DNA from: Candidatus Saccharimonadota bacterium
GTDB taxonomy: Bacteria; Patescibacteriota; Saccharimonadia; Saccharimonadales; Saccharimonadaceae
Length of the DNA stretch: 32,000 nucleotides
Reading direction: 5' to 3'
Assembly: GCA_002421785.1 (NCBI GenBank)
Contig: DIRZ01000001.1
Coordinates: 60,001-92,000, forward strand
Every line of letters begins with the position of its first letter. The first letter of the stretch is position 1. Shown in pieces: positions 9,370 through 18,859 of the stretch. The notes beneath the pieces were generated by a model. It was not told the DNA's origin and did not search any database. It saw nothing but the letters and a program-made list of their open reading frames with translations. The position numbers were made by a program, and so were the translations under genes.

Positions 9370-9493
9370 ATATACTAGCTATTATAGTCGTAACGGGCAT
9401 AAAAAAGAATCCTAGCTCTTGCAAATATCGCTCATGATACGCTACTATAGGGTAAGCACGAGCGGGGTAGCGCTCTCATTAGTAAGGGAGTAT

Positions 9494-10462
9494 ATGAGCG
9501 AAAAAACGGTTTCTATTAACGGCACGGTATACGACAAGCGCACCGGTATGCCTGTTCGCGTTGAACGCGAAGTCCATAACGTTACACGCCACAACGCGCA
9601 AACTGTTCATCAGCAGCTGCAAAAATCGCGCACCCTCAACCGCAAGTACGTCGCCCGTGACGCCGCTGCCACAGCTACAGCACCCGCTAGCACGGCTCCG
9701 GCTCCACACGCAATTTCTACCCACCGCGTCGTTTCGGCTCCCCAGGTTTCGCGTAGTGAGTCGGTTTCGCGCTTTGCTAAGGAATTTAACCGCGCACATG
9801 CAGTCCCCCAAAAAACCATTCGCGACATCGGCCCAACTGCTCATCCACTCGTTCGCCGCACCGAAGCAATTGTTGCTGCTAAAGCGCCTGTCGCAACCGT
9901 AATTAAACCTTCTTCAGTCCTCAAAAACGAAGCCATAAGCCGCGCCATGGCTCAAACACCTGCCAAGAACCACGCCAAGCCAGTCAAACAAAAATCTACC
10001 AGCAGGCACCGTCGAGCGCTCAGCCTTGCGTCTGCATCACTGGCGATTGTTCTGCTCGGTGGATACTTTACGTACCTTAGCATGCCGCAGATCTCAACCC
10101 GCGTTGCTGCCGCTCAAGCCGGTATCGCCGCAAGCTACCCCAGCTATCACCCAACAGGCTATACGCTGAGCGGGCCTGTTGCTTATGACCAAGGAAGCGT
10201 GACGATGAAATTCGCCGCCAATGCCGGCCCTCAAACCTTCACGCTTAACCAATCTCGCTCAGGCTGGGATTCCTCGGCAGTGCTCGACAACTACGTCGCA
10301 CCAAAGGCAGGTGAAAATTACAGCGCCACCACCATGAACGGCCTTACCATTTATACCTATAACAGCAACGCTGCATGGGTAAATGGCGGCATTTTGTACA
10401 CAATTACGGGCAACGCGCCCCTCAGCGGCGAACAAATCGGCCGCATTGCCACCAGTTTATAG
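9494..10462 (+). CDS. hypothetical single-pass membrane protein
   Basis: The start is trimmed to MSEKTVSING (ATG 9494), which is preceded by AAGGGAG. The central TM helix is LSLASASLAIVLLGGYFTYL. I recognise no catalytic motif. Confidence 0.55.
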   Translation: MSEKTVSINGTVYDKRTGMPVRVEREVHNVTRHNAQTVHQQLQKSRTLNRKYVARDAAATATAPASTAPAPHAISTHRVVSAPQVSRSESVSRFAKEFNRAHAVPQKTIRDIGPTAHPLVRRTEAIVAAKAPVATVIKPSSVLKNEAISRAMAQTPAKNHAKPVKQKSTSRHRRALSLASASLAIVLLGGYFTYLSMPQISTRVAAAQAGIAASYPSYHPTGYTLSGPVAYDQGSVTMKFAANAGPQTFTLNQSRSGWDSSAVLDNYVAPKAGENYSATTMNGLTIYTYNSNAAWVNGGILYTITGNAPLSGEQIGRIATSL

Positions 10463-10521
10463 CTGACCGCTTCGCGCAAACCACCTCGTCAATACCGGGG
10501 TGTTTTGCTATACTGACAGAC

Positions 10522-11952
10522 ATGACTGTACGTACACGTTTCGCTCCAAGCCCCACCGGCTATATCCATGTCGGCAATGTTCGCGCCGCACTTTTCCCAT
10601 GGCTCCTCGCGCGGCAGCAGCAGGGAACCTATATTTTACGCATCGAAGACACCGACCAAGCACGCTTCGTCGATGGCGCCACCGACCTGATTCTTGACAC
10701 GCTCGAATGGCTCGGCATTGATTGGGACGAAGGACCGCGAAAAGGCGGGGAATACGGACCCTACATCCAGTCCGAGCGACGCGATATCTACAAAGCCTGG
10801 GCACAAAAGCTTGTCGATAAGGGACTTGCCTACGCCGACCCTTACACGCCCGAAGAGGTACAGACCTTCCGCGAAGAAGCCAAAGCGCTTAAAAAACCGT
10901 TTTTGTACCGTGACCATCGCCCCGAGAATCCACCTGCCTGGGATGGCACACAGCCACTACGGCTCAAGGTAACCGACATCAAACGCTACACCTGGAACGA
11001 CCCTGTGATGGGCGAGCTTTCCGCAGGGCCCGAGGTGTTGGACGATTTCATCCTCATGAAAGCGGACGGTCTGCCAACGTACAACTTCGCGCATATTGTG
11101 GACGATGCCGAAATGAATGTCACGCACGTTATTCGTGGACTGGAGTACATTTCTTCAATCCCGCGCTATCTGAGCCTGTACGAAGCACTCGGGCTTGAAG
11201 TCCCTGTATTGGCGTGTCTGCCACACATCATGGCACCCGACGGCAAAAAGAAACTTGGCAAACGCGATGGCGCTAAAAGCGTCCAGGAATACCGCACCGA
11301 TGGCATCTTGCCTGAAGCAATGCTGAATTTCCTTGCCAGTATGGGTTGGAACGACGGCACAGAACAAGAGCTCTTTAGTCGTGAAGAGTTAATTGAAAAA
11401 TTCAGCCTCGACCGAGTCCAGCGCAGTGGCGCACGCTTTGACGAGCAACGACTACTCTGGATGAACGGGCAATGGATACGCCGACTCAGCCTCGATGACC
11501 TGTACACTCGAACGCTCAAGTACTGGCCCAAGAGTGCTGAAACTTACGACGAAGCCTACAAAAAACAAGTTCTCGGCCTCGTCCAAGATCGCCTAAAAAC
11601 TCTTGCCGAACTACCAATGATGACGAAGTACTTTTTCGAAGAGCCAGTCATCAACACCGAGCTGATTACCGACAATAAGCAGCTCAAAAAATTGTCGCCA
11701 GAAGAAGTTTCTACGCTGTTAGTAGCCGTCAAAACTGAGTTTGAAAACCTAGGCGAATGGACGCCCGAAGCCTTACAGGAATGCCTGAACCGCCTGCTTG
11801 ATGTCACAGGCCAAAAACCGGGCATTTTGTTCAGTCTGGTGCGCATTATCACCACATGGGCCCCCTTCAGTCCACAGCTCAACGATACGCTTGCACTCCT
11901 AGGCAAAGACAAAACGCTCGAGCGAATGGCAAACTACACTACGACACGCTAG
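10522..11952 (+). CDS. gltX: glutamyl-tRNA synthetase
   Basis: MTVRTRFAPSPTGYIHVGNVRAALF is the class I HIGH region, and KKKLGKRDG is the KMSKS-like loop. The start is trimmed from 10375. TATACT 10509-10514 lies 7 nt upstream. Confidence 0.9.
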   Translation: MTVRTRFAPSPTGYIHVGNVRAALFPWLLARQQQGTYILRIEDTDQARFVDGATDLILDTLEWLGIDWDEGPRKGGEYGPYIQSERRDIYKAWAQKLVDKGLAYADPYTPEEVQTFREEAKALKKPFLYRDHRPENPPAWDGTQPLRLKVTDIKRYTWNDPVMGELSAGPEVLDDFILMKADGLPTYNFAHIVDDAEMNVTHVIRGLEYISSIPRYLSLYEALGLEVPVLACLPHIMAPDGKKKLGKRDGAKSVQEYRTDGILPEAMLNFLASMGWNDGTEQELFSREELIEKFSLDRVQRSGARFDEQRLLWMNGQWIRRLSLDDLYTRTLKYWPKSAETYDEAYKKQVLGLVQDRLKTLAELPMMTKYFFEEPVINTELITDNKQLKKLSPEEVSTLLVAVKTEFENLGEWTPEALQECLNRLLDVTGQKPGILFSLVRIITTWAPFSPQLNDTLALLGKDKTLERMANYTTTR

Positions 11953-12010
11953 TTCTAGGCACGCTACCTCTAGCGTAGGGTAGGCCAACTTTGCTATACT
12001 AACCATAAGC

Positions 12011-13102
12011 ATGAAATGGCCTCATCCACACACTCTTTTACCCCGCGTCCATAACTGGATTCACCTCCATCCTCGGCGCACGTACGCATTTGTGGGCCTT
12101 GGCCTTGTCGTCGCGGCATCACTCATCGCAACGATACTGTTACTGCAACCAGCGCCCGAACCCCCCGTCGTCGTCACACCGACCGTCAAAAAGAAACCAA
12201 AGCCCGCACCCGTATTCTACTCGCCACTGACCGGACTAAAAGTGAACGATGAAGCCGCCACCAAGCAAGCCGTCACCGCCATCATGATTGAAAACAGTCC
12301 CGATGCGCGCCCGCAAAGCGGCGTCAAAGCAGCCGGAATTGTGTTCGAAGCGGTTGCCGAAGGCGGCATTACCCGGTTCCTGACACTACACCAAGAAGAC
12401 AAACCCCAGCTTATCGGTCCCGTGCGGAGCCTACGCATGTACTACGTTGACTGGCTTGCGCCGTACCAAGCAAGCGTTGCACACATCGGGGGAAGCGCGG
12501 CCGCACTCGCTGAAGTACGCAACGGCAACTACCGTGACATCGACCAGTTCTTTAACGCGCCGTACTACTGGCGCGCTACAGACCGCTACGCCCCCCATAA
12601 CGTATATACCAGCTTCGAAAAACTCGACGCGCTCAACCAGGCAAAAGGCTACACCGAATCCAGTTTCGAGGGCTTTGCCCGCATTGACGGTAAGCCAAGT
12701 AGTACGCCCAACGCCACAAGCATAGACCTCAACTTCAGTAGCGCGCTCTATAACACCCACTACGACTACGACACAGCCAGCAATACCTACCTTCGCTCCA
12801 TCGGTGGCGCACCGAGCGAAGACCGCGAAAGTGGGCGCATTATGCCAAGTGTTGTCGTAGCTATGAAAGTTGATATGACTCGCGTGCTCGAAGACGGCTA
12901 CCGTGAAAGCATCGTCACGACAGGCAGCGGTCCTGCTGTTATCTTCCAGAATGGAATCGTCACTGAAGCAACCTGGCAAAAAGACAGTCGCGCTGCGCCA
13001 CTTCGATTTATCGGTGCCGATGGCAAGCCTATCTCGCTGGTTCGTGGACAAACCTGGATCGGCGCCGTCCCTAATGGATCGGGGAGTGTCGCATGGAGAT
13101 AA
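12011..13102 (+). CDS. DUF3048 (YerB-like) domain protein, membrane anchored
   Basis: There is an N-terminal TM helix. AIMIENSPDARPQSGVKAAGIVFEAVAEGGITRFLTLHQ matches my recollection of the DUF3048 core. Confidence 0.65.
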   Translation: MKWPHPHTLLPRVHNWIHLHPRRTYAFVGLGLVVAASLIATILLLQPAPEPPVVVTPTVKKKPKPAPVFYSPLTGLKVNDEAATKQAVTAIMIENSPDARPQSGVKAAGIVFEAVAEGGITRFLTLHQEDKPQLIGPVRSLRMYYVDWLAPYQASVAHIGGSAAALAEVRNGNYRDIDQFFNAPYYWRATDRYAPHNVYTSFEKLDALNQAKGYTESSFEGFARIDGKPSSTPNATSIDLNFSSALYNTHYDYDTASNTYLRSIGGAPSEDRESGRIMPSVVVAMKVDMTRVLEDGYRESIVTTGSGPAVIFQNGIVTEATWQKDSRAAPLRFIGADGKPISLVRGQTWIGAVPNGSGSVAWR

Positions 13103-14664
13103 AAGACTCAAAACCGACCGACCGACCCACACCAACCAAGCCAGTGCTACTGAGTGATTACTGGCCTCGATATCGCCGCACCGCACTGCTTGCGACCTTT
13201 GCGATGCAAGTCGTCGTTGTTGCTGTTGTGGGCATGTCGCTCCTGGTCGGCGGAACACCGTTTACCGACCCTACATTTGGCATTACCATGCTTGCCACGC
13301 TACTGTGCGCCGGGTTCCTGAACGCGATGCTTGTCGATCTACTACTGACTCCTCACCGCGATATCGTGACAGCCGTTGCGCATGCCGCGGGCGAAAAATC
13401 CGACATCCCACTTGCCAGTCCAAATTCCGTACGCAACATCAAGAGCGGATTTAGGCCTGTGCTCCAGTTTGTCTATGAGCTCGTTGCTGACCAGAGCAAA
13501 CCAGAGGGGGCTGCGACGTCAGACACTGCAGCCACAGAACTCCACAAGCTTGCGACCGCCTTCGATCAAACCAGTGCGGGCCTGGTCACTATGGATGCTA
13601 ACGGCTCAATCCAATACGCAAACCGCCATGCACCGGTCGGCAAAACAACCAACGAAGTGCCGTACCTCGAATTGCTTTTTGAGCGTGAAGGCGAATTTAT
13701 GGAATGGCTCGCCACTTGCCGCGATAGTTCTGTGCGCGCTGAGCGCACCTGGCTCCGCGTTCCCAATAAAGTACTGGGCGACGAAGACCGACGAATCTTT
13801 GACGTTGCCGTCAACTACGAAAAGGGAAGTGCCGCGGAAGTTGTCATCGTCTGTTTTGATAGTTCCAAAGAATACCAACCAGAAGACGACGAACTCGACT
13901 TCATCGCGTTTGCCGCCCATGAATTGCGCGGTCCTATTACGGTCATTCGTGGCTATCTGGATGTGCTCGATATCGAAATCGGCCCCAGTCTCGCCCCGGA
14001 TCAACAAGAACTCATTAAGCGTTTAATTGTTTCGGCGAACCGCCTCAGTGGCTACATCAACAACATCCTCAATACCAGCAAATTTGACCGACGCCACATG
14101 AAGATACACCTAGCGGAAGATTCCGTCGCATCGATTTACGATTCCATACGCGATGACATGGAGCTGCGCGCGTCGTCCCAAAACCGCCTACTAACCGTCA
14201 CGCTTCCACCCGACCTACCAACAATTGCCGCTGACCGTTCAAGCCTAAGCGAGGTGATATCCAACCTCATCGACAACGCGCTCAAATACAGTACCGAAGG
14301 TGGCCTCGTGGCGGTGTCGGCCAGCGCAAAGGACGGCTATGTGACCGTGAGCGTACAGGACCACGGCATAGGAATGCCAAGCAACGTGGTAGGAAACCTG
14401 TTCCACAAATTCTATCGCTCGCACCGCTCGCGTGAAACCGTCGCCGGAACCGGCATCGGGCTCTACATCTGCAAAGCCATCGTTGAATCGCATGGCGGCA
14501 AAATAGGCGTGTCCAGCGTCGAAGGGCAGGGCTCCACGTTCAGCTTCACCGTTCCGATCTACGCCGCCGTAGCCGACAGGTTACAGGCAAACGACCACAC
14601 CAACGCAGGGCTCATTTCGACAAGCGACGGCTGGATAAAAAATCACTCTAAGTACACAGGATAG
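13093..14664 (+). CDS. sensor histidine kinase (2 TM, PAS-like, HisKA, HATPase_c)
   Basis: The H-box is FAAHELRGPITVIRGY, the N-box is LIDNALKYS and the G-boxes are DHGIGMP / GTGIGLYICKAIVESHGG. It overlaps the upstream gene by 10 nt. Confidence 0.85.
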   Translation: MEIKDSKPTDRPTPTKPVLLSDYWPRYRRTALLATFAMQVVVVAVVGMSLLVGGTPFTDPTFGITMLATLLCAGFLNAMLVDLLLTPHRDIVTAVAHAAGEKSDIPLASPNSVRNIKSGFRPVLQFVYELVADQSKPEGAATSDTAATELHKLATAFDQTSAGLVTMDANGSIQYANRHAPVGKTTNEVPYLELLFEREGEFMEWLATCRDSSVRAERTWLRVPNKVLGDEDRRIFDVAVNYEKGSAAEVVIVCFDSSKEYQPEDDELDFIAFAAHELRGPITVIRGYLDVLDIEIGPSLAPDQQELIKRLIVSANRLSGYINNILNTSKFDRRHMKIHLAEDSVASIYDSIRDDMELRASSQNRLLTVTLPPDLPTIAADRSSLSEVISNLIDNALKYSTEGGLVAVSASAKDGYVTVSVQDHGIGMPSNVVGNLFHKFYRSHRSRETVAGTGIGLYICKAIVESHGGKIGVSSVEGQGSTFSFTVPIYAAVADRLQANDHTNAGLISTSDGWIKNHSKYTG

Positions 14665-15131: not shown

Positions 15132-15206
15132 GGCCCTATCGTCTAACGGTTAGGACATCAGGTTCTCATCCTGGCAATCCGGGTTCGATTCCCGGTAGGG
15201 TCACCA
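15132..15206 (+). tRNA. tRNA-Glu (anticodon CTC), CCA encoded
   Basis: The acceptor is GGCCCTA/TAGGGTC, the D region is TCGTCTAACGGTTAGGAC, the anticodon stem-loop is CAGG-TTCTCAT-CCTG, and the T arm is CCGGG-TTCGATT-CCCGG. Confidence 0.85.
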
Positions 15207-15210
15207 AATA

Positions 15211-15245
15211 AAAATACTCTGCCTTTAGGTAGGGTATTTTTATTT
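15211..15245 (+). terminator. rho-independent terminator after tRNA-Glu
   Basis: AAAATACTCTGCC-TTTA-GGTAGGGTATTTT forms a hairpin with two G-U pairs and is followed by a T-run. Confidence 0.7.
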
Positions 15246-15287
15246 GATAGCTCTCGCCCGAGAGCCGAACCCGAAGGGTTCGATAGC
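15246..15287 (+). repeat. twin back-to-back hairpins bracketed by GATAGC direct repeats; contains a 9-nt copy of the tRNA T-arm (GGGTTCGAT)
   Basis: GCTCTCG/CGAGAGC lies at 15250-15265 and CGAACCC-GAA-GGGTTCG at 15266-15282. GATAGC occurs at 15246 and 15282. GGGTTCGAT at 15276-15284 is identical to tRNA positions 15181-15189. Confidence 0.6.
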
Positions 15288-15290
15288 AAG

Positions 15291-15326
15291 GAGCAGAGCA
15301 GAGCAGAGTAGAGTAGAGTAGAGTAG
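15291..15326 (+). repeat. pentanucleotide microsatellite (GAGCA)x3 (GAGTA)x4
   Basis: Read directly from the sequence: seven head-to-tail pentamers, ending 2 nt before a possible -35 (TTGCTC 15328-15333, then 17 nt, then TTATAT 15351-15356). Confidence 0.9.
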
Positions 15327-15448: not shown

Positions 15449-17074
15449 ATGAAACAAATGAAGGCTTGCACCCCACCTAGCGCTGTCAAAGAAAATCTAT
15501 CTACGTACGATTTTTTTATACCGCTTCCAGAAGCTGTTCGGCTGCCTGAGGGACTACAGATCTTCGCTGAGGAAATTGACGATATAAGGAAAGGGGAAAG
15601 ACAAGTTTTGCGCTATGTCACGGCAGATGGGCTTAAGCGCCGCATAAACGTGCGGATAGAGTTTAGTCGAATCAAACATAACGTCCCGGTAGATGCATTG
15701 GCGGCAAGCTATTCTACATTGACTAAATTTTATGGCTTAAAGAAAGTCAAACTACCCCCCGAGGCTAACATCCAGGGTTACTTATCAATCGCACACGTAG
15801 GGGTGATAGGACCTCAAAATGCAACAGACGCCCAACTCTCAGATTATTTTGACGAGGGCATGTCGACCCTTAGGCAAGTGCTGAAGACATACTATGCAAA
15901 GCACCGTCTCCCACTGAATCTCCCGTCGCGACAAAATATCGGTGCGATGATTCCCTATACGGTCGAGAACATCGACAGCAAAGGGCTACCCGAGAACGGT
16001 CACTCAACACTTAGTTTAGGAATGCTCTTGACTGGGGGTCAATTCGACATTGCGACTACATTTGCAGAGCCATTATCCTCCAGTGAAGCAAGTACTATAA
16101 CCAAGGCTCAAATTCTTGATTCGGCTACTCTTTTGGAGCCATATATGGACGCGTATCGCGAGGCTACAGCCGCGGAATCCAACGGAGAATACCTCGCGGC
16201 GAGCGTTTTATTTACAGCAGCAATCGAGATATACCTTGACATAGTCTTGCAGCTAATGATGTGGGAAGAAGGAATGTCTCCGGAAGAAGCAAACTATCTA
16301 CTCAACGAAGTAAAGGTATGCGGTTGTGAGAACTGTACCGCGAAAATAAGCACCACCTTGGATCGAACAAGATCAGGCCTATATAAGAGTCGCCTAGGGG
16401 GGAGTTGGGACATCTATAAGGACCCCCTAATGAAGCGCTGGCAAGCAGCTCGGTATATTCGCAATGCAGCTGTACATAGCGGACAAGAGCCATCAGTCAG
16501 CGACACAAAAGACATTCATCGAACTCTTGACGAGATAGTGGCTTGGATTATAGATCTTCTGTGCACTAGCCTTTCGATTTACCCCGTAACAACCTTCGCG
16601 CTCGCTGGTCGCATAGGCCTAGAAAAGCGTGATCGCTGGGATGAGTATCAAGCCCTAGAAATCGGGGACGTGCCCGTCTCAATATCAAAGACTTTCGGCA
16701 ACTGGCGTAATGAGATAGCGCGGCTCCACCCATATTCATCCACTAGAAAAACAGTCGACGCAAGTTGTGACTTGGTCTATCTCCTGCATCCCAACGGAAA
16801 GCGCTATTGGCTTTTATGTGATTTTGCTAAGCAGTTATTCCGCTATACCAGCACCCCAAAATTAAACGAAGAAGCAAAGCTGGTAATCGCTAGTGTAGAA
16901 AGAAAATATACCAAAGGCCCACCGGGCAAAGGGATTACAATTCGTCTTGACAACCTAACGCGACCCGTTGATCACAGGAAGAAAGTTTGGCATCCGCTTT
17001 ACCTCATCTCCTCTGATTATGGCATTACTTGTCGCCCTACAAGCTTTACGATGCCAGAAGCGGGCGAGCAATAA
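15449..17074 (+). CDS. orphan 541-aa protein with a central HEPN-like R-x4-H motif (putative RNase toxin/defence protein)
   Basis: A long clean ORF in AT-shifted DNA. The central helical segment is EYLAASVLFTAAIEIYLDIVLQL ... WQAARYIRNAAVHSGQEPS ... IHRTLDEIVAWIIDLL. R-N-A-A-V-H (codons at 16460-16477) matches the HEPN R-[N/D/H]-x3-H signature. I recognise nothing in the N-terminal ~230 aa or the C-terminal ~170 aa. Confidence 0.75.
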   Translation: MKQMKACTPPSAVKENLSTYDFFIPLPEAVRLPEGLQIFAEEIDDIRKGERQVLRYVTADGLKRRINVRIEFSRIKHNVPVDALAASYSTLTKFYGLKKVKLPPEANIQGYLSIAHVGVIGPQNATDAQLSDYFDEGMSTLRQVLKTYYAKHRLPLNLPSRQNIGAMIPYTVENIDSKGLPENGHSTLSLGMLLTGGQFDIATTFAEPLSSSEASTITKAQILDSATLLEPYMDAYREATAAESNGEYLAASVLFTAAIEIYLDIVLQLMMWEEGMSPEEANYLLNEVKVCGCENCTAKISTTLDRTRSGLYKSRLGGSWDIYKDPLMKRWQAARYIRNAAVHSGQEPSVSDTKDIHRTLDEIVAWIIDLLCTSLSIYPVTTFALAGRIGLEKRDRWDEYQALEIGDVPVSISKTFGNWRNEIARLHPYSSTRKTVDASCDLVYLLHPNGKRYWLLCDFAKQLFRYTSTPKLNEEAKLVIASVERKYTKGPPGKGITIRLDNLTRPVDHRKKVWHPLYLISSDYGITCRPTSFTMPEAGEQ

Positions 17075-17336
17075 AATAGCAAGCAGACTACAGCACCGTA
17101 CCGCAAACACTGCTTACTGATATATTCTTCTGTTCTTGAGAGCCAAGCATCACGTCGTATCAAAAATCTGACTTCTCCAGCATATAAGTGATATTGCATG
17201 AACACGGTAAAAAATAATTCCCGTGTCTCACCCGGTTAGGAACCTCACCCCTTGCGCCACATCAAACTTGACAATTCATCGCAGTGGCCCGACCGCGCAT
17301 CAGCAATGGAATATGATAAGATATCCCTACACACCT

Positions 17337-18260
17337 ATGGCACGCATTTACGAACAAACCTACTTCGATGATGGAATAAAGCCCCTCGCACAGGCGAACC
17401 TGAGTATAGCCAGCTCGGCCGTGCTGTATGGCCTAAGCGTCTATACGGTATTCCCAGTACATACTACGAGCGATGGCAAGTTAGTCGCGTTTCGCCTGCA
17501 TGATCATTTTGAACGCCTCATCAATTCAGCCCGAATTGTCGGCATTGATACGTTCGAAGCCGACTGGGACGAAGCACGTTTTGTTAGCGTCGTTAAAGAA
17601 CTTGTAAAAGCAAATGATGTTCAGGACACTGCGTTTGTCAGGGCAACCGTCCACGTGAACGAACTGGTGCCAGGCACTCGGTCAAGGGGGCTCAAAACCT
17701 CACTCAGCATATTCATTTACGAAGCAGCCCCCATATTGCCGCAAGACGGCGCACGACTAAAAACCAGCGTGTGGCGCCGCATTCCAGACTATGCGATTCC
17801 ATCCCGCGCCAAAGTGAACGGCGCTTACGTGAACTCCGTACTTGCCAAACAAGACGCGCTTGATAGCGGGTACGATGACTGTACATTCCTCGATGCGGCC
17901 GGGCACGTGTGCGAACTAAGCGCGGCTAATATATTCATTGTCAGAAACAACACGTTAATCACACCGAATACCACCAGCGACCTGCTCGAAGGCATCAACC
18001 GCAAGACCGTGCTCGAACTCGCAAAAGATATGGGGATACCTGTCGTCGAGCGTGATATCGACCTTACTGAACTCTACATCGCCGACGAAGCATTCGCCTG
18101 CGGAACGTCAGCCTACCTGGCACCAATCTTCGAAATTGACGCCCGAAGAATCGGCAACAAGACCATCGGCCCCCTCACGGAGCGTCTGCGCAAACAATAC
18201 ACAGACGTGCTCCACGGCCACGACGAAGCCTACAAGCATCTCGTCACTGTACTCAACTAG
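17337..18260 (+). CDS. class IV aminotransferase (branched-chain / D-amino-acid aminotransferase-like)
   Basis: SRAKVNGAYVNSVLAKQDALDSGYDD is the fold-type IV catalytic Lys region, and LEGINRKTVLELA and AFACGTSA are also present. The start is trimmed to MARIYEQ (ATG 17337); ATG 17313 is an alternative. Confidence 0.75.
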   Translation: MARIYEQTYFDDGIKPLAQANLSIASSAVLYGLSVYTVFPVHTTSDGKLVAFRLHDHFERLINSARIVGIDTFEADWDEARFVSVVKELVKANDVQDTAFVRATVHVNELVPGTRSRGLKTSLSIFIYEAAPILPQDGARLKTSVWRRIPDYAIPSRAKVNGAYVNSVLAKQDALDSGYDDCTFLDAAGHVCELSAANIFIVRNNTLITPNTTSDLLEGINRKTVLELAKDMGIPVVERDIDLTELYIADEAFACGTSAYLAPIFEIDARRIGNKTIGPLTERLRKQYTDVLHGHDEAYKHLVTVLN

Positions 18261-18271
18261 CCCGCCCGTAT

Positions 18272-18300
18272 TTGACACACACCGCTTACGCCTTTATCAT
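18272..18300 (+). promoter_or_regulatory. promoter TTGACA-17 nt-TATCAT for the pilin gene
   Basis: TTGACA is at 18272-18277 and TATCAT at 18295-18300. The ATG lies 7 nt after the -10. Confidence 0.55.
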
Positions 18301-18307
18301 AAAACTA

Positions 18308-18859
18308 ATGACCAATTCTCGGGGGCGCAGACACTACACAGGCTTTACTATCGTGGAGCTCCTAATTGTGATTGTTGTGATTGCTATACTCGCCGCCATA
18401 ACCATCGCTGCCTATAACGGGGTTCAGGACCGCGCGAATGATTCTAGCGTGCAGGCAGACCTACGGACAATTAGCAAAAAGTTCGAACTGGCACGCGTCG
18501 ATGACGCGAACGCCTACTACCCAACGAACAACGCGACAATAGCTGCTGCTATACCCGGCGTCAAAGTTGCCAAGTCTTCGTACGCCACAACGCCCGACGT
18601 CGCTTACAACCTGTTGTTTTGTTGGCCAAGCACGGCCACGCCACGTGACTATGCGCTGCTTGCGACAAGCAAGTCAGGGAAGCGCTTTTACATTCGTACG
18701 ACGGGCGCGGTGACAGAGTATACCGGTGCCGTTAGCTGGGCGGACGCCAACATTTCGGCAATGTGCGGAAGTGTTATTGCTGGCTCCTCAGCATCGGGTG
18801 CCGGCTACTCGTCGGGTGACACCGCTACCGGGCCGTGGCGGTCCTGGACGGGCGCTTAA
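18308..18859 (+). CDS. type IV pilin / pseudopilin (prepilin N-terminal methylation motif)
   Basis: The N-terminus MTNSRGRRHYTG|FTIVELLIVIVVIAILAAITIAAY has a short basic leader, then G/FT.VEL, then a hydrophobic helix. Confidence 0.85.
   Translation: MTNSRGRRHYTGFTIVELLIVIVVIAILAAITIAAYNGVQDRANDSSVQADLRTISKKFELARVDDANAYYPTNNATIAAAIPGVKVAKSSYATTPDVAYNLLFCWPSTATPRDYALLATSKSGKRFYIRTTGAVTEYTGAVSWADANISAMCGSVIAGSSASGAGYSSGDTATGPWRSWTGA

Follow-up and report, generated by a model that had tools for sequence, protein, structure and literature searches.

What is encoded by the large gene that follows the tRNA-Glu gene in a 32,000-nt stretch of a Saccharibacteria genome (Candidatus Saccharimonadota bacterium, contig DIRZ01000001.1, positions 60,001 to 92,000; this whole stretch is called the window below), and how did it come to be there? 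A sequence-only reading of the window regarded the product as an orphan protein with a HEPN-type R-x4-H motif and as a candidate toxin or defence RNase. HEPN RNases are recurring effectors of prokaryotic immunity, with Cas13, Csm6, PrrC, ApeA and DARNA as examples. The follow-up analysis places the protein in a large family with a predicted central HEPN domain. The best overall explanation, to which a probability of about 0.6 is given, is that it is a self-contained, autoinhibited HEPN RNase that would act in abortive infection. The clean 541-codon open reading frame (ORF) that had been reported is present:

15449..17074, + strand: HEPN-family gene encoding a protein of 541 aa (ATG-start ORF, real and intact)

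The protein turned out not to be an orphan. The 541-aa sequence gave no usable match in Pfam, NCBIfam, PADLOC, PHROGs or the PDB sequences, and a profile search against the PDB sequences returned chance matches only. A word-indexed homologue search found only seven relatives, even with a profile of 111 sequences, so that an exhaustive search was needed to see the family. This HMMER scan of 1.84 billion cluster representatives yielded 547 clusters (defined at 50% identity) with E<=1e-3, 202 of them with E<=1e-10. Most members are 500-620 aa long and align from end to end. The protein is thus a member of a widespread and large three-domain family that has hitherto been unannotated: the named public members, all labelled 'hypothetical protein', come from an Amycolatopsis chromosome and from plasmids of Arthrobacter, Corynebacterium maris, Gordonia, Kocuria and Rhodococcus. 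The family is common to Saccharibacteria and Actinomycetota, and since the loci that carry it range from 35% to 69% in G+C content (GC), it is taxonomically broad, extending from candidate-phyla bacteria of low GC to actinomycetes of high GC. No relative was found on the contigs of the GTDB species representatives with peptide patterns built on a close alignment, which means that the family is either absent there or too divergent at the peptide patterns searched. Neither the phage records searched by tblastn nor the viral contigs searched with a degenerate motif pattern contained a family member, so a phage-encoded origin is not supported.

HEPN domains consist of four helices arranged as two α-hairpins, with an Rx4-6H motif at the end of helix 3 leading into the loop before helix 4 (PMC3710099). 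The arginine is followed by a polar residue (N, D or H), helix 2 carries an acidic residue, typically within E-x3-[KR], and a variable insert separates helices 2 and 3 (PMC3710099). The four-helix core, the position of the motif, the polar residue after the arginine, the acidic residue of helix 2 and the insert are all found in the family. In the window, the relevant elements are the following:

16130..16573, + strand: HEPN-like four-helix domain, approximately residues 228-375 (DSSP of the model, Foldseek, consensus profiles)
16226..16228, + strand: E260, the conserved acidic residue of helix 2, in E-x3-D/R (alignment; helix 248-273)
16262..16267, + strand: W272-E273 of the family-specific LLWEEG..P motif, at the end of helix 2 (alignment)
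16319..16336, + strand: CGCENC (C291, C293, C296), in the insert between helices 2 and 3 (translation)
16460..16477, + strand: RNAAVH, R338 to H343, the predicted catalytic R-x4-H (translation, alignment, model)

RNAAVH, CGCENC and the EIYLD...WE stretch starting at 16226 had been quoted exactly in the sequence-only reading. Conservation was counted over 157 family members that were aligned to the family hidden Markov model (HMM) and share 18-49% identity. Both R338 and H343 are invariant (157/157 each). At position 339, 103 members have N, 45 have H and 5 have D, which together make up 153 of the 157; an R-x4-H motif conserved to this degree goes far beyond what chance would give. E260 is retained in 153/157 members and replaced by Q in three. 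Four positions further, D predominates (116 members) and R occurs in only 20, so that the K/R partner of E-x3-[KR] is usually missing. Other nearly invariant positions are W272 (156/157), W320 (154/157), E273 and P348 (149/157 each).

The structural model agrees with the helical bundle that had been read from the sequence. An AlphaFold2 model of the full-length protein, built from 111 diverse members, has a predicted local distance difference test score (pLDDT) of 92.7 and a predicted template modelling (TM) score (pTM) of 0.90. It consists of an α/β N-terminal domain (residues ~17-205), a helical domain (~228-425) and a β-rich C-terminal domain (~430-541), which are predicted to pack rigidly against each other, as the high pTM of the full model implies. 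According to DSSP, the bundle is formed by helix 1 (230-244), helix 2 (248-273), helix 3 (326-344) and helix 4 (350-373), with R338 and H343 at the C-terminal end of helix 3, followed by a loop (345-349). The insert (274-325) consists of short helices and a hairpin, and the spacing between W272 and R338 varies from 51 to 66 residues across the family. In a Foldseek search against 350,542 PDB chains, the only high-probability matches were 2q00_A (0.99) and 2hsb (0.97), both HEPN proteins, with target TM-scores of 0.62-0.63 and weak Foldseek E-values (0.18-0.31). In BFVD, an unnamed protein matched with a probability of 0.97 and a MAE_28990-like HEPN protein with 0.38.

Profile searches, which had been proposed as a check, gave a divided picture: matches to the HEPN clan appeared below threshold or through the consensus, but the actual protein matched nothing significantly. 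Sub-threshold matches to four Pfam families of the HEPN clan were obtained for 7 of 65 members, and weak matches to DUF4145 for 3 of the 65 as well as for the domain from the window itself. The consensus of the family domain matches DUF4145 with E = 2e-4 and 21.8 bits (cutoff 23.1) over ~34 residues at the motif helix. Over the whole domain, it matches PF05168 HEPN with E = 0.02 and the PADLOC Csx1/Csm6 HEPN model with E = 4e-6. An hhalign comparison between the family and the Ymh-HEPN alignment matched the motif only and was not significant.

One might therefore ask whether the central domain is a HEPN nuclease at all. The R-x4-H could be convergent, and the bundle could have another activity or a purely structural role. 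Four-helix bundles are common, the curated HEPN models stay below threshold on the actual sequence, and neither the Foldseek E-values nor the Ymh comparison reach significance. However, five independent hallmarks coincide (the motif, the polar residue, the position at the end of helix 3, the acidic residue in helix 2 and the insert between helices 2 and 3), the only high-probability folds among all PDB chains searched belong to HEPN proteins, and the weak profile matches all point to the HEPN clan. A non-HEPN bundle is thus very improbable, and a HEPN fold with an intact predicted catalytic site is accepted with high confidence. The protein belongs to the HEPN superfamily, but to none of its named families.

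The cysteine cluster noted earlier does lie in the insert between the helices, although it does not define the family. It is part of an insert of ~11 residues that occurs in only 9 of the 157 members, in a clade close to the Saccharibacteria, and that is deleted in homologue P0007 and in most of the family. The cluster is thus clade-specific; possibly, CGCENC forms a small metal-binding knuckle.

Besides the HEPN domain, the protein contains two flanking domains:

15497..16063, + strand: N-terminal α/β domain, approximately residues 17-205, a candidate sensor or regulatory domain (secondary structure of the model, conservation)
16736..17071, + strand: C-terminal β-rich domain, approximately residues 430-541 (secondary structure of the model, conservation)

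The N-terminal domain opens with a conserved FFIPLP strand and additionally carries TV.E, AFD and QRAY motifs; in the C-terminal part, W419, D458 and W514 are conserved. When modelled alone, the N-terminal domain reaches a pLDDT of 90.5. It had been described as unrecognised, which agrees with the lack of Pfam matches and with a Foldseek search against the PDB that gave no credible analogue (best probability 0.35, TM-score below 0.25). The idea of an RRM/RAMP domain was rejected: RAMP/Cas7-like chains had probabilities of 0.25 at most, and these did not improve with the domain-only model.

Among HEPN systems, the key interest lies in how the nuclease is kept off and what switches it on. In this respect, ApeA and DARNA/PD-T7-3 are the closest working analogues. 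ApeA (HEPN_Apea) is an anti-phage nuclease that targets tRNA anticodons and works by abortive infection; it consists of a single protein, is found in defence islands and, as here, has no partner gene. It is likewise one chain of ~500-600 aa in which a HEPN domain is combined with non-catalytic domains without known homology. Its activating ligand is bound in a pocket that lies between the HEPN domain and the N-terminal domain (bioRxiv 10.64898/2026.01.26.701840). However, the family does not match the Pfam models HEPN_Apea and ApeA-NTD or the PADLOC model, even by its consensus. The HEPN domain is C-terminal in ApeA and central here, where the N-terminal domain has a different α/β fold of ~190 aa and an extra C-terminal β domain is present. 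DARNA/PD-T7-3 is a single-gene HEPN tRNase activated by single-stranded DNA (ssDNA), in which the R-x4-H site forms across a HEPN dimer and the cue is sensed by a non-catalytic ssDNA-binding C-terminal domain (bioRxiv 10.64898/2026.02.22.705581). That protein of 456 aa is helical throughout; its HEPN domain is N-terminal and its C-terminal domain is Pds5-like, so that both domain order and folds differ from those of the family; no PADLOC model links the two.

Other HEPN groups are less similar. The Csx1/Csm6 HEPN domains of the accessory RNases of type III CRISPR systems give the E = 4e-6 consensus match, the best of all, whereas the actual sequence has no such match, no cas genes lie nearby, a CARF domain is absent, and the N-terminal domain matches neither Rossmann nor CARF folds. 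DUF4145 (PF13643) is the nearest Pfam family, in which the consensus aligns on the R-x4-H helix below the gathering threshold, but its architecture is entirely different. DUF4145 is a HEPN family that is often fused to restriction endonucleases or helicases and is associated with restriction-modification (PMC3710099). The best structural matches to the central domain (2q00, 2hsb) are minimal HEPN toxins of the HepT/MNT-associated type. These toxins have ~120-130 aa and an MNT antitoxin, whereas the present protein is four times larger with its 541 aa, has an insert of ~50 residues between helices 2 and 3, and is encoded next to a response regulator, a tRNA and an aminotransferase instead of an MNT gene.

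A further question is whether the protein works alone. No antitoxin-like or MNT small ORF is found beside the gene, as had been claimed, and the only Rfam match around it is the tRNA, with no structured RNA that could serve as antitoxin. Tandem repeats of ~30-40 nt, as in AbiF-like type III antitoxins, are absent upstream; past the tRNA hairpin, the spacer in front of the ORF contains only a pentanucleotide microsatellite, (GAGTA)x7.2, at 15291-15326, which is missing from the equivalent spacer in locus L134. Across the loci of the family, an all-against-all BLAST of 139 neighbours showed no conserved partner gene, with one recurrent pair only, which fits a single-gene system. DUF5677, DUF4238, DUF4365 and DUF3768 each occur in only 2-3 distinct contexts.

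DUF5677/DUF4238-type neighbours were located as follows, without strand assignment:

L001 11638-13518; L134 1932-3814; L094 5943-6995; metagenome loci: DUF5677/DUF4238-type neighbours

Both recur beside family members of distant lineages: DUF5677 lies beside three homologues, i.e., P0004 (L001-L003) and P0005 (L134), which belong to two related islands of Saccharibacteria, and the one on the Corynebacterium plasmid, and DUF4238 occurs in at least three loci. The DUF5677 protein of L001 has a weak PADLOC DitA match (E = 0.0012). DUF5677 is reported to be enriched near defence loci marked by serine recombinases (PMC12632615).

These neighbours bear on the possibility that the protein is an addiction toxin, comparable to those of toxin-antitoxin systems, which would stabilize plasmids and islands without sensing phages and would be neutralized by an unrecognised protein (e.g., DUF5677), a small ORF or an RNA. 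It is well established that HEPN toxins can be paired with MNT, RNA or protein antitoxins, and the family does occur on plasmids and integrative elements. Moreover, some members are closely coupled to a neighbour. In L001 and L134, the gene is followed after 5 nt by DUF5677, which directly precedes it on the C. maris plasmid pCmaris1, while a 272-aa ORF overlaps the gene start in L089 and a 195-aa ORF overlaps the stop in Amycolatopsis. Yet no partner is conserved across loci, and the copy in the window, which has neither an adjoining ORF nor a structured RNA but only the 5-nt microsatellite, has nevertheless stayed intact and kept all conserved residues, an argument for autoinhibition within the protein itself. 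An addiction toxin is therefore considered unlikely.

The genomic context of the relatives points to defence. On the Arthrobacter plasmid pJ337-114, genes for a methyltransferase and for a type III restriction enzyme (PADLOC E = 1e-45) precede the family member, and P0012 is encoded after a similar Res protein. On the Kocuria plasmid, the family member precedes genes for a TIR protein and a fused AriAB/PARIS protein (E = 3e-57). P0008 (L007) lies between a gene of the Ymh HEPN family and an Eco57I/XhoI type II restriction-modification pair. P0010 (L099) overlaps an AbiO/Nhi/PDC-S41-like helicase gene in an operon, with a SocA-Panacea antitoxin-type gene nearby, and P0022 and P0119 (L091, L098) adjoin homologous DUF4365 proteins that resemble restriction endonucleases. 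A degenerate-motif scan of metagenome contigs gave 33 loci with at least 24 true members, and among 99 metagenome neighbours there are resolvases, transposases, DUF4238, Schlafen-AlbA_2, HD and PDDEXK proteins and PDC-S02/M02 candidates. Hence, the co-occurrence with defence genes for which a survey had been suggested is found for the relatives, which cluster with defence and mobile genes; presence at the conserved locus is variable. In the window itself no defence gene adjoins the ORF, and the defence context comes from the relatives only.

The closest homologues additionally show how the gene may travel. P0005 (L134), which is 46% identical, is encoded directly downstream of a tRNA-Glu(CUC) and is followed by genes for DUF5677, for a 346-aa protein, for SPOUT and for UmuC. 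The 346-aa protein has no Pfam match on record and corresponds to the DUF4238 gene of L001. P0004 (L001-L003) is part of an island that adjoins the same gltX-histidine kinase (HK)-response regulator (RR) block as in the window and that carries DUF5677, DUF4238, UmuDC, PLD, CHAP and a type IV secretion cluster. P0002 and P0003 are encoded on ~6.5-kb elements ending in a large serine recombinase that abuts the 3′ end of a tRNA; these homologues on tRNA-abutting serine-recombinase elements are found at loci L133 and L004. The recombinase next to P0003 is 42-46% identical to recombinases linked to tRNA-Glu in other Saccharibacteria. In approximately 27 of 37 loci (a count by eye from the GC table), the gene is poorer in GC than its flanks. 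The contrast is most extreme in Amycolatopsis (0.52 versus 0.68 in the flanks).

In the chromosome of Amycolatopsis sp. Hca4, the family member (L097 8001-9851) has 52% GC in a genome of 68% GC, and its stop overlaps the 195-aa ORF. The Ymh/TIGR02391 protein beside P0008 (L007 6076-7302, + strand) has relatives that are 50-57% identical in many Actinomycetota (Micromonospora, Arthrobacter, Microbacterium) and one that is 63% identical in Saccharibacteria. As both these Ymh relatives and the family studied here span Saccharibacteria and Actinomycetota, there is a hint, from sequence comparison, of a pool of defence genes that may be common to Saccharibacteria epibionts and their actinobacterial hosts.

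The same distribution, together with the island of P0004, raises the idea of an effector toxin aimed at other cells, which Saccharibacteria, for example, would direct at competitors or at their actinobacterial hosts and export through the type IV secretion system encoded next to it. In L001, the homologue indeed adjoins a CHAP peptidoglycan hydrolase, PLD and a VirB4/VirD4-type cluster. However, this neighbourhood exists in one lineage only, and secretion genes of this kind are missing around the actinobacterial plasmid copies; the family is mostly surrounded by restriction-modification or defence genes. Since a signal peptide, a polymorphic-toxin architecture and a conserved immunity gene are lacking as well, export as a toxin is highly unlikely, more so than any other explanation considered here.

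Its composition and the comparison of related genomes bear on the question of how the gene came to be at its present position. The window contains the following elements upstream of the gene:

15132..15206, + strand: tRNA-Glu, anticodon CUC (ARAGORN; Rfam tRNA, 60 bits)
15205..15246 (approximate), + strand: AT-rich 19-bp hairpin, plausible terminator (inverted repeat and RNA fold)

The gene had been placed immediately downstream of a tRNA and its terminator. The tRNA-Glu and, directly after it, a strong hairpin (folding free energy -23.9 kcal/mol, z = -7.99 against shuffles) are both present, but a simple consensus terminator scan did not flag the hairpin, which is plausibly the terminator. 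The spacer between tRNA-Glu and the start of the ORF is 242 nt, on the same strand. Furthermore, the claim that the gene is the most AT-rich coding DNA of the window is borne out: its GC (0.474) and its GC at third codon positions (GC3, 0.470) are the lowest among the 29 main ORFs, while the window as a whole has a GC of 0.534 and its ORFs typically have a GC3 of 0.52-0.70. The raw GC is slightly lower (0.457) in a 1-kb sliding window at 26.5-27.5 kb, a stretch that is partly non-coding. Upstream, the gene is preceded by a histidine kinase and a response regulator. Downstream come genes for a class IV aminotransferase and a pilin-like protein, then a second two-component pair, and the remainder of the window encodes housekeeping functions such as topoisomerase I (topA), DprA, Der, Pth and sortase.

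Approximately 20 genomes of Saccharibacteria species keep the block DUF4367-gltX-DUF3048-HK-RR, usually with tRNA-Glu(CUC) following it; the kinase of the block in the window shares no more than 73% identity with its counterpart in UBA1944. No family member was detected in these ~20 genomes by tblastn, nor by the family HMM in the 13 that have sequence downstream of the block, so the gene is not a strictly syntenic core gene, and the variable presence at tRNA-Glu for which a survey had been advised is real. Many contigs of metagenome-assembled genomes end just past tRNA-Glu(CUC). The slot from the block and tRNA-Glu to the next conserved genes (a second HK-RR pair and a pseudouridine synthase) measures 3.9 kb in the window, as against 2.3 kb in L009 and 6.7 kb in L018, and its contents are unrelated between genomes. 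The tRNA-Glu gene marks the conserved border of this variable slot.

In three loci, a serine recombinase is encoded directly downstream of tRNA-Glu (L012 9645-11186, L019 12393-13955 and L021 12704-14509, all on the - strand), with the 3′ end of its coding sequence running antisense into the 3′ end of the tRNA. The C-termini of these recombinases read ...ISPGIEPGL(S/P)G or ...GDPTGNRTRIARMRT. As the recombinases run into the tRNA gene, the locus documents tRNA-Glu(CUC) as an integration hotspot for serine recombinases in Saccharibacteria. The gene in the window is a compositionally foreign and variably present insertion beside this tRNA. Most likely, it is not a core gene but mobile or accessory cargo, and because there is neither a recombinase nor an attachment (att) repeat, the copy looks like stranded cargo.

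These data also weigh on the explanation that the protein is a cellular HEPN protein without any role in conflict, involved in RNA processing or regulation or binding RNA or nucleotides without catalysis. Some HEPN families do function in RNA maturation or are non-catalytic (PMC3710099), the gene of the window lies among housekeeping genes, and some of the metagenomic neighbours are ordinary. On the other hand, the gene is patchily present among close relatives at a conserved locus, its composition is foreign here and its GC mostly lower than that of its flanks elsewhere, and it is carried by plasmids and recombinase islands. In addition, the strict invariance of the arginine, the histidine and the polar residue argues for catalysis. 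A purely cellular function is thus improbable, clearly more so than an addiction toxin.

Taken with the established biology of HEPN proteins such as ApeA, DARNA/PD-T7-3, PrrC, Csm6 and HepT, the results suggest a mechanism for the self-contained RNase. Two protomers would dimerise via their HEPN domains, which would bring the two R-x4-H motifs together in a single RNase site that needs no metal. Until an infection cue is sensed, the enzyme may be kept off by its N- and C-terminal domains. Once activated, the enzyme would cut tRNA or other cellular RNA, and the resulting arrest of translation would abort phage replication. By analogy with these systems, anti-phage abortive infection is the probable, but by no means secure, biological role. 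The large stand-alone protein and candidate toxin or defence RNase of the sequence-only reading are in this way supported by the motif, the model, the profiles and the context, with activity and role as predictions.

Several observations weigh against this explanation. The actual protein has no significant match to any HEPN model, and all profile support is either below threshold or derived from an artificial consensus sequence. In the window, the neighbours of the gene are housekeeping genes (two-component system, aminotransferase, pilin, topA, der), and a search around it for an integrase or its remnant and for an att repeat, including a direct repeat of the 3′ end of tRNA-Glu, revealed none. 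The neighbourhood survey covers ~35 loci without a statistical background, and ordinary genes (HSP70, MMPL) are present among the neighbours as well.

A more far-reaching proposal is that the family represents a new class of single-protein abortive-infection RNases, in which the N- and C-terminal domains would be a new infection sensor clamping the HEPN core, and which would circulate between Saccharibacteria epibionts and their Actinomycetota hosts via plasmids and tRNA-targeting serine-recombinase islands. This proposal is tentative, its chances being rated slightly below even. A further HEPN family in defence islands will not astonish specialists; the family is, however, large, unannotated and confidently modelled, and its flanking domains offer a possible new mechanism of sensing a trigger. 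Naming it would improve the annotation of defence genes, above all in Saccharibacteria, of which the defence repertoire is barely charted.

Some minor observations concern the surroundings of the gene and of the hotspot. Between tRNA-Glu and the gene, a 16-nt stretch (15258-15273), located 52 nt 3′ of the tRNA, is 81% complementary to the T-arm of the tRNA (15180-15195). Similar pairs are common in the 2.5-kb region, and this inverted partial copy is probably due to chance, although it could be a decayed att remnant. In L012, a 581-aa protein is encoded just past the tRNA-Glu-linked serine recombinase (11648-13393, + strand). It has a P-loop ATPase with weak AAA_23, AAA_15 and AAA_29 matches, and its N-terminal region appears PHP-like by eye, a reading that no Pfam match supports; it could be further island cargo of the defence type. 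In the ~20 related genomes, nothing that corresponds to the aminotransferase and pilin-like (N_methyl) genes of the window (17223-18859) lies within 10 kb of the orthologous block, so that the variability may extend over all 3.9 kb between tRNA-Glu and the second kinase and not be confined to the HEPN gene. Lastly, the DUF4367-like ORF (9419-10462) and the gltX ORF (10375-11952), as called mechanically, overlap by 88 nt. As the GltX Pfam match starts at residue 52 of the gltX ORF, the true start of gltX is probably located further downstream.

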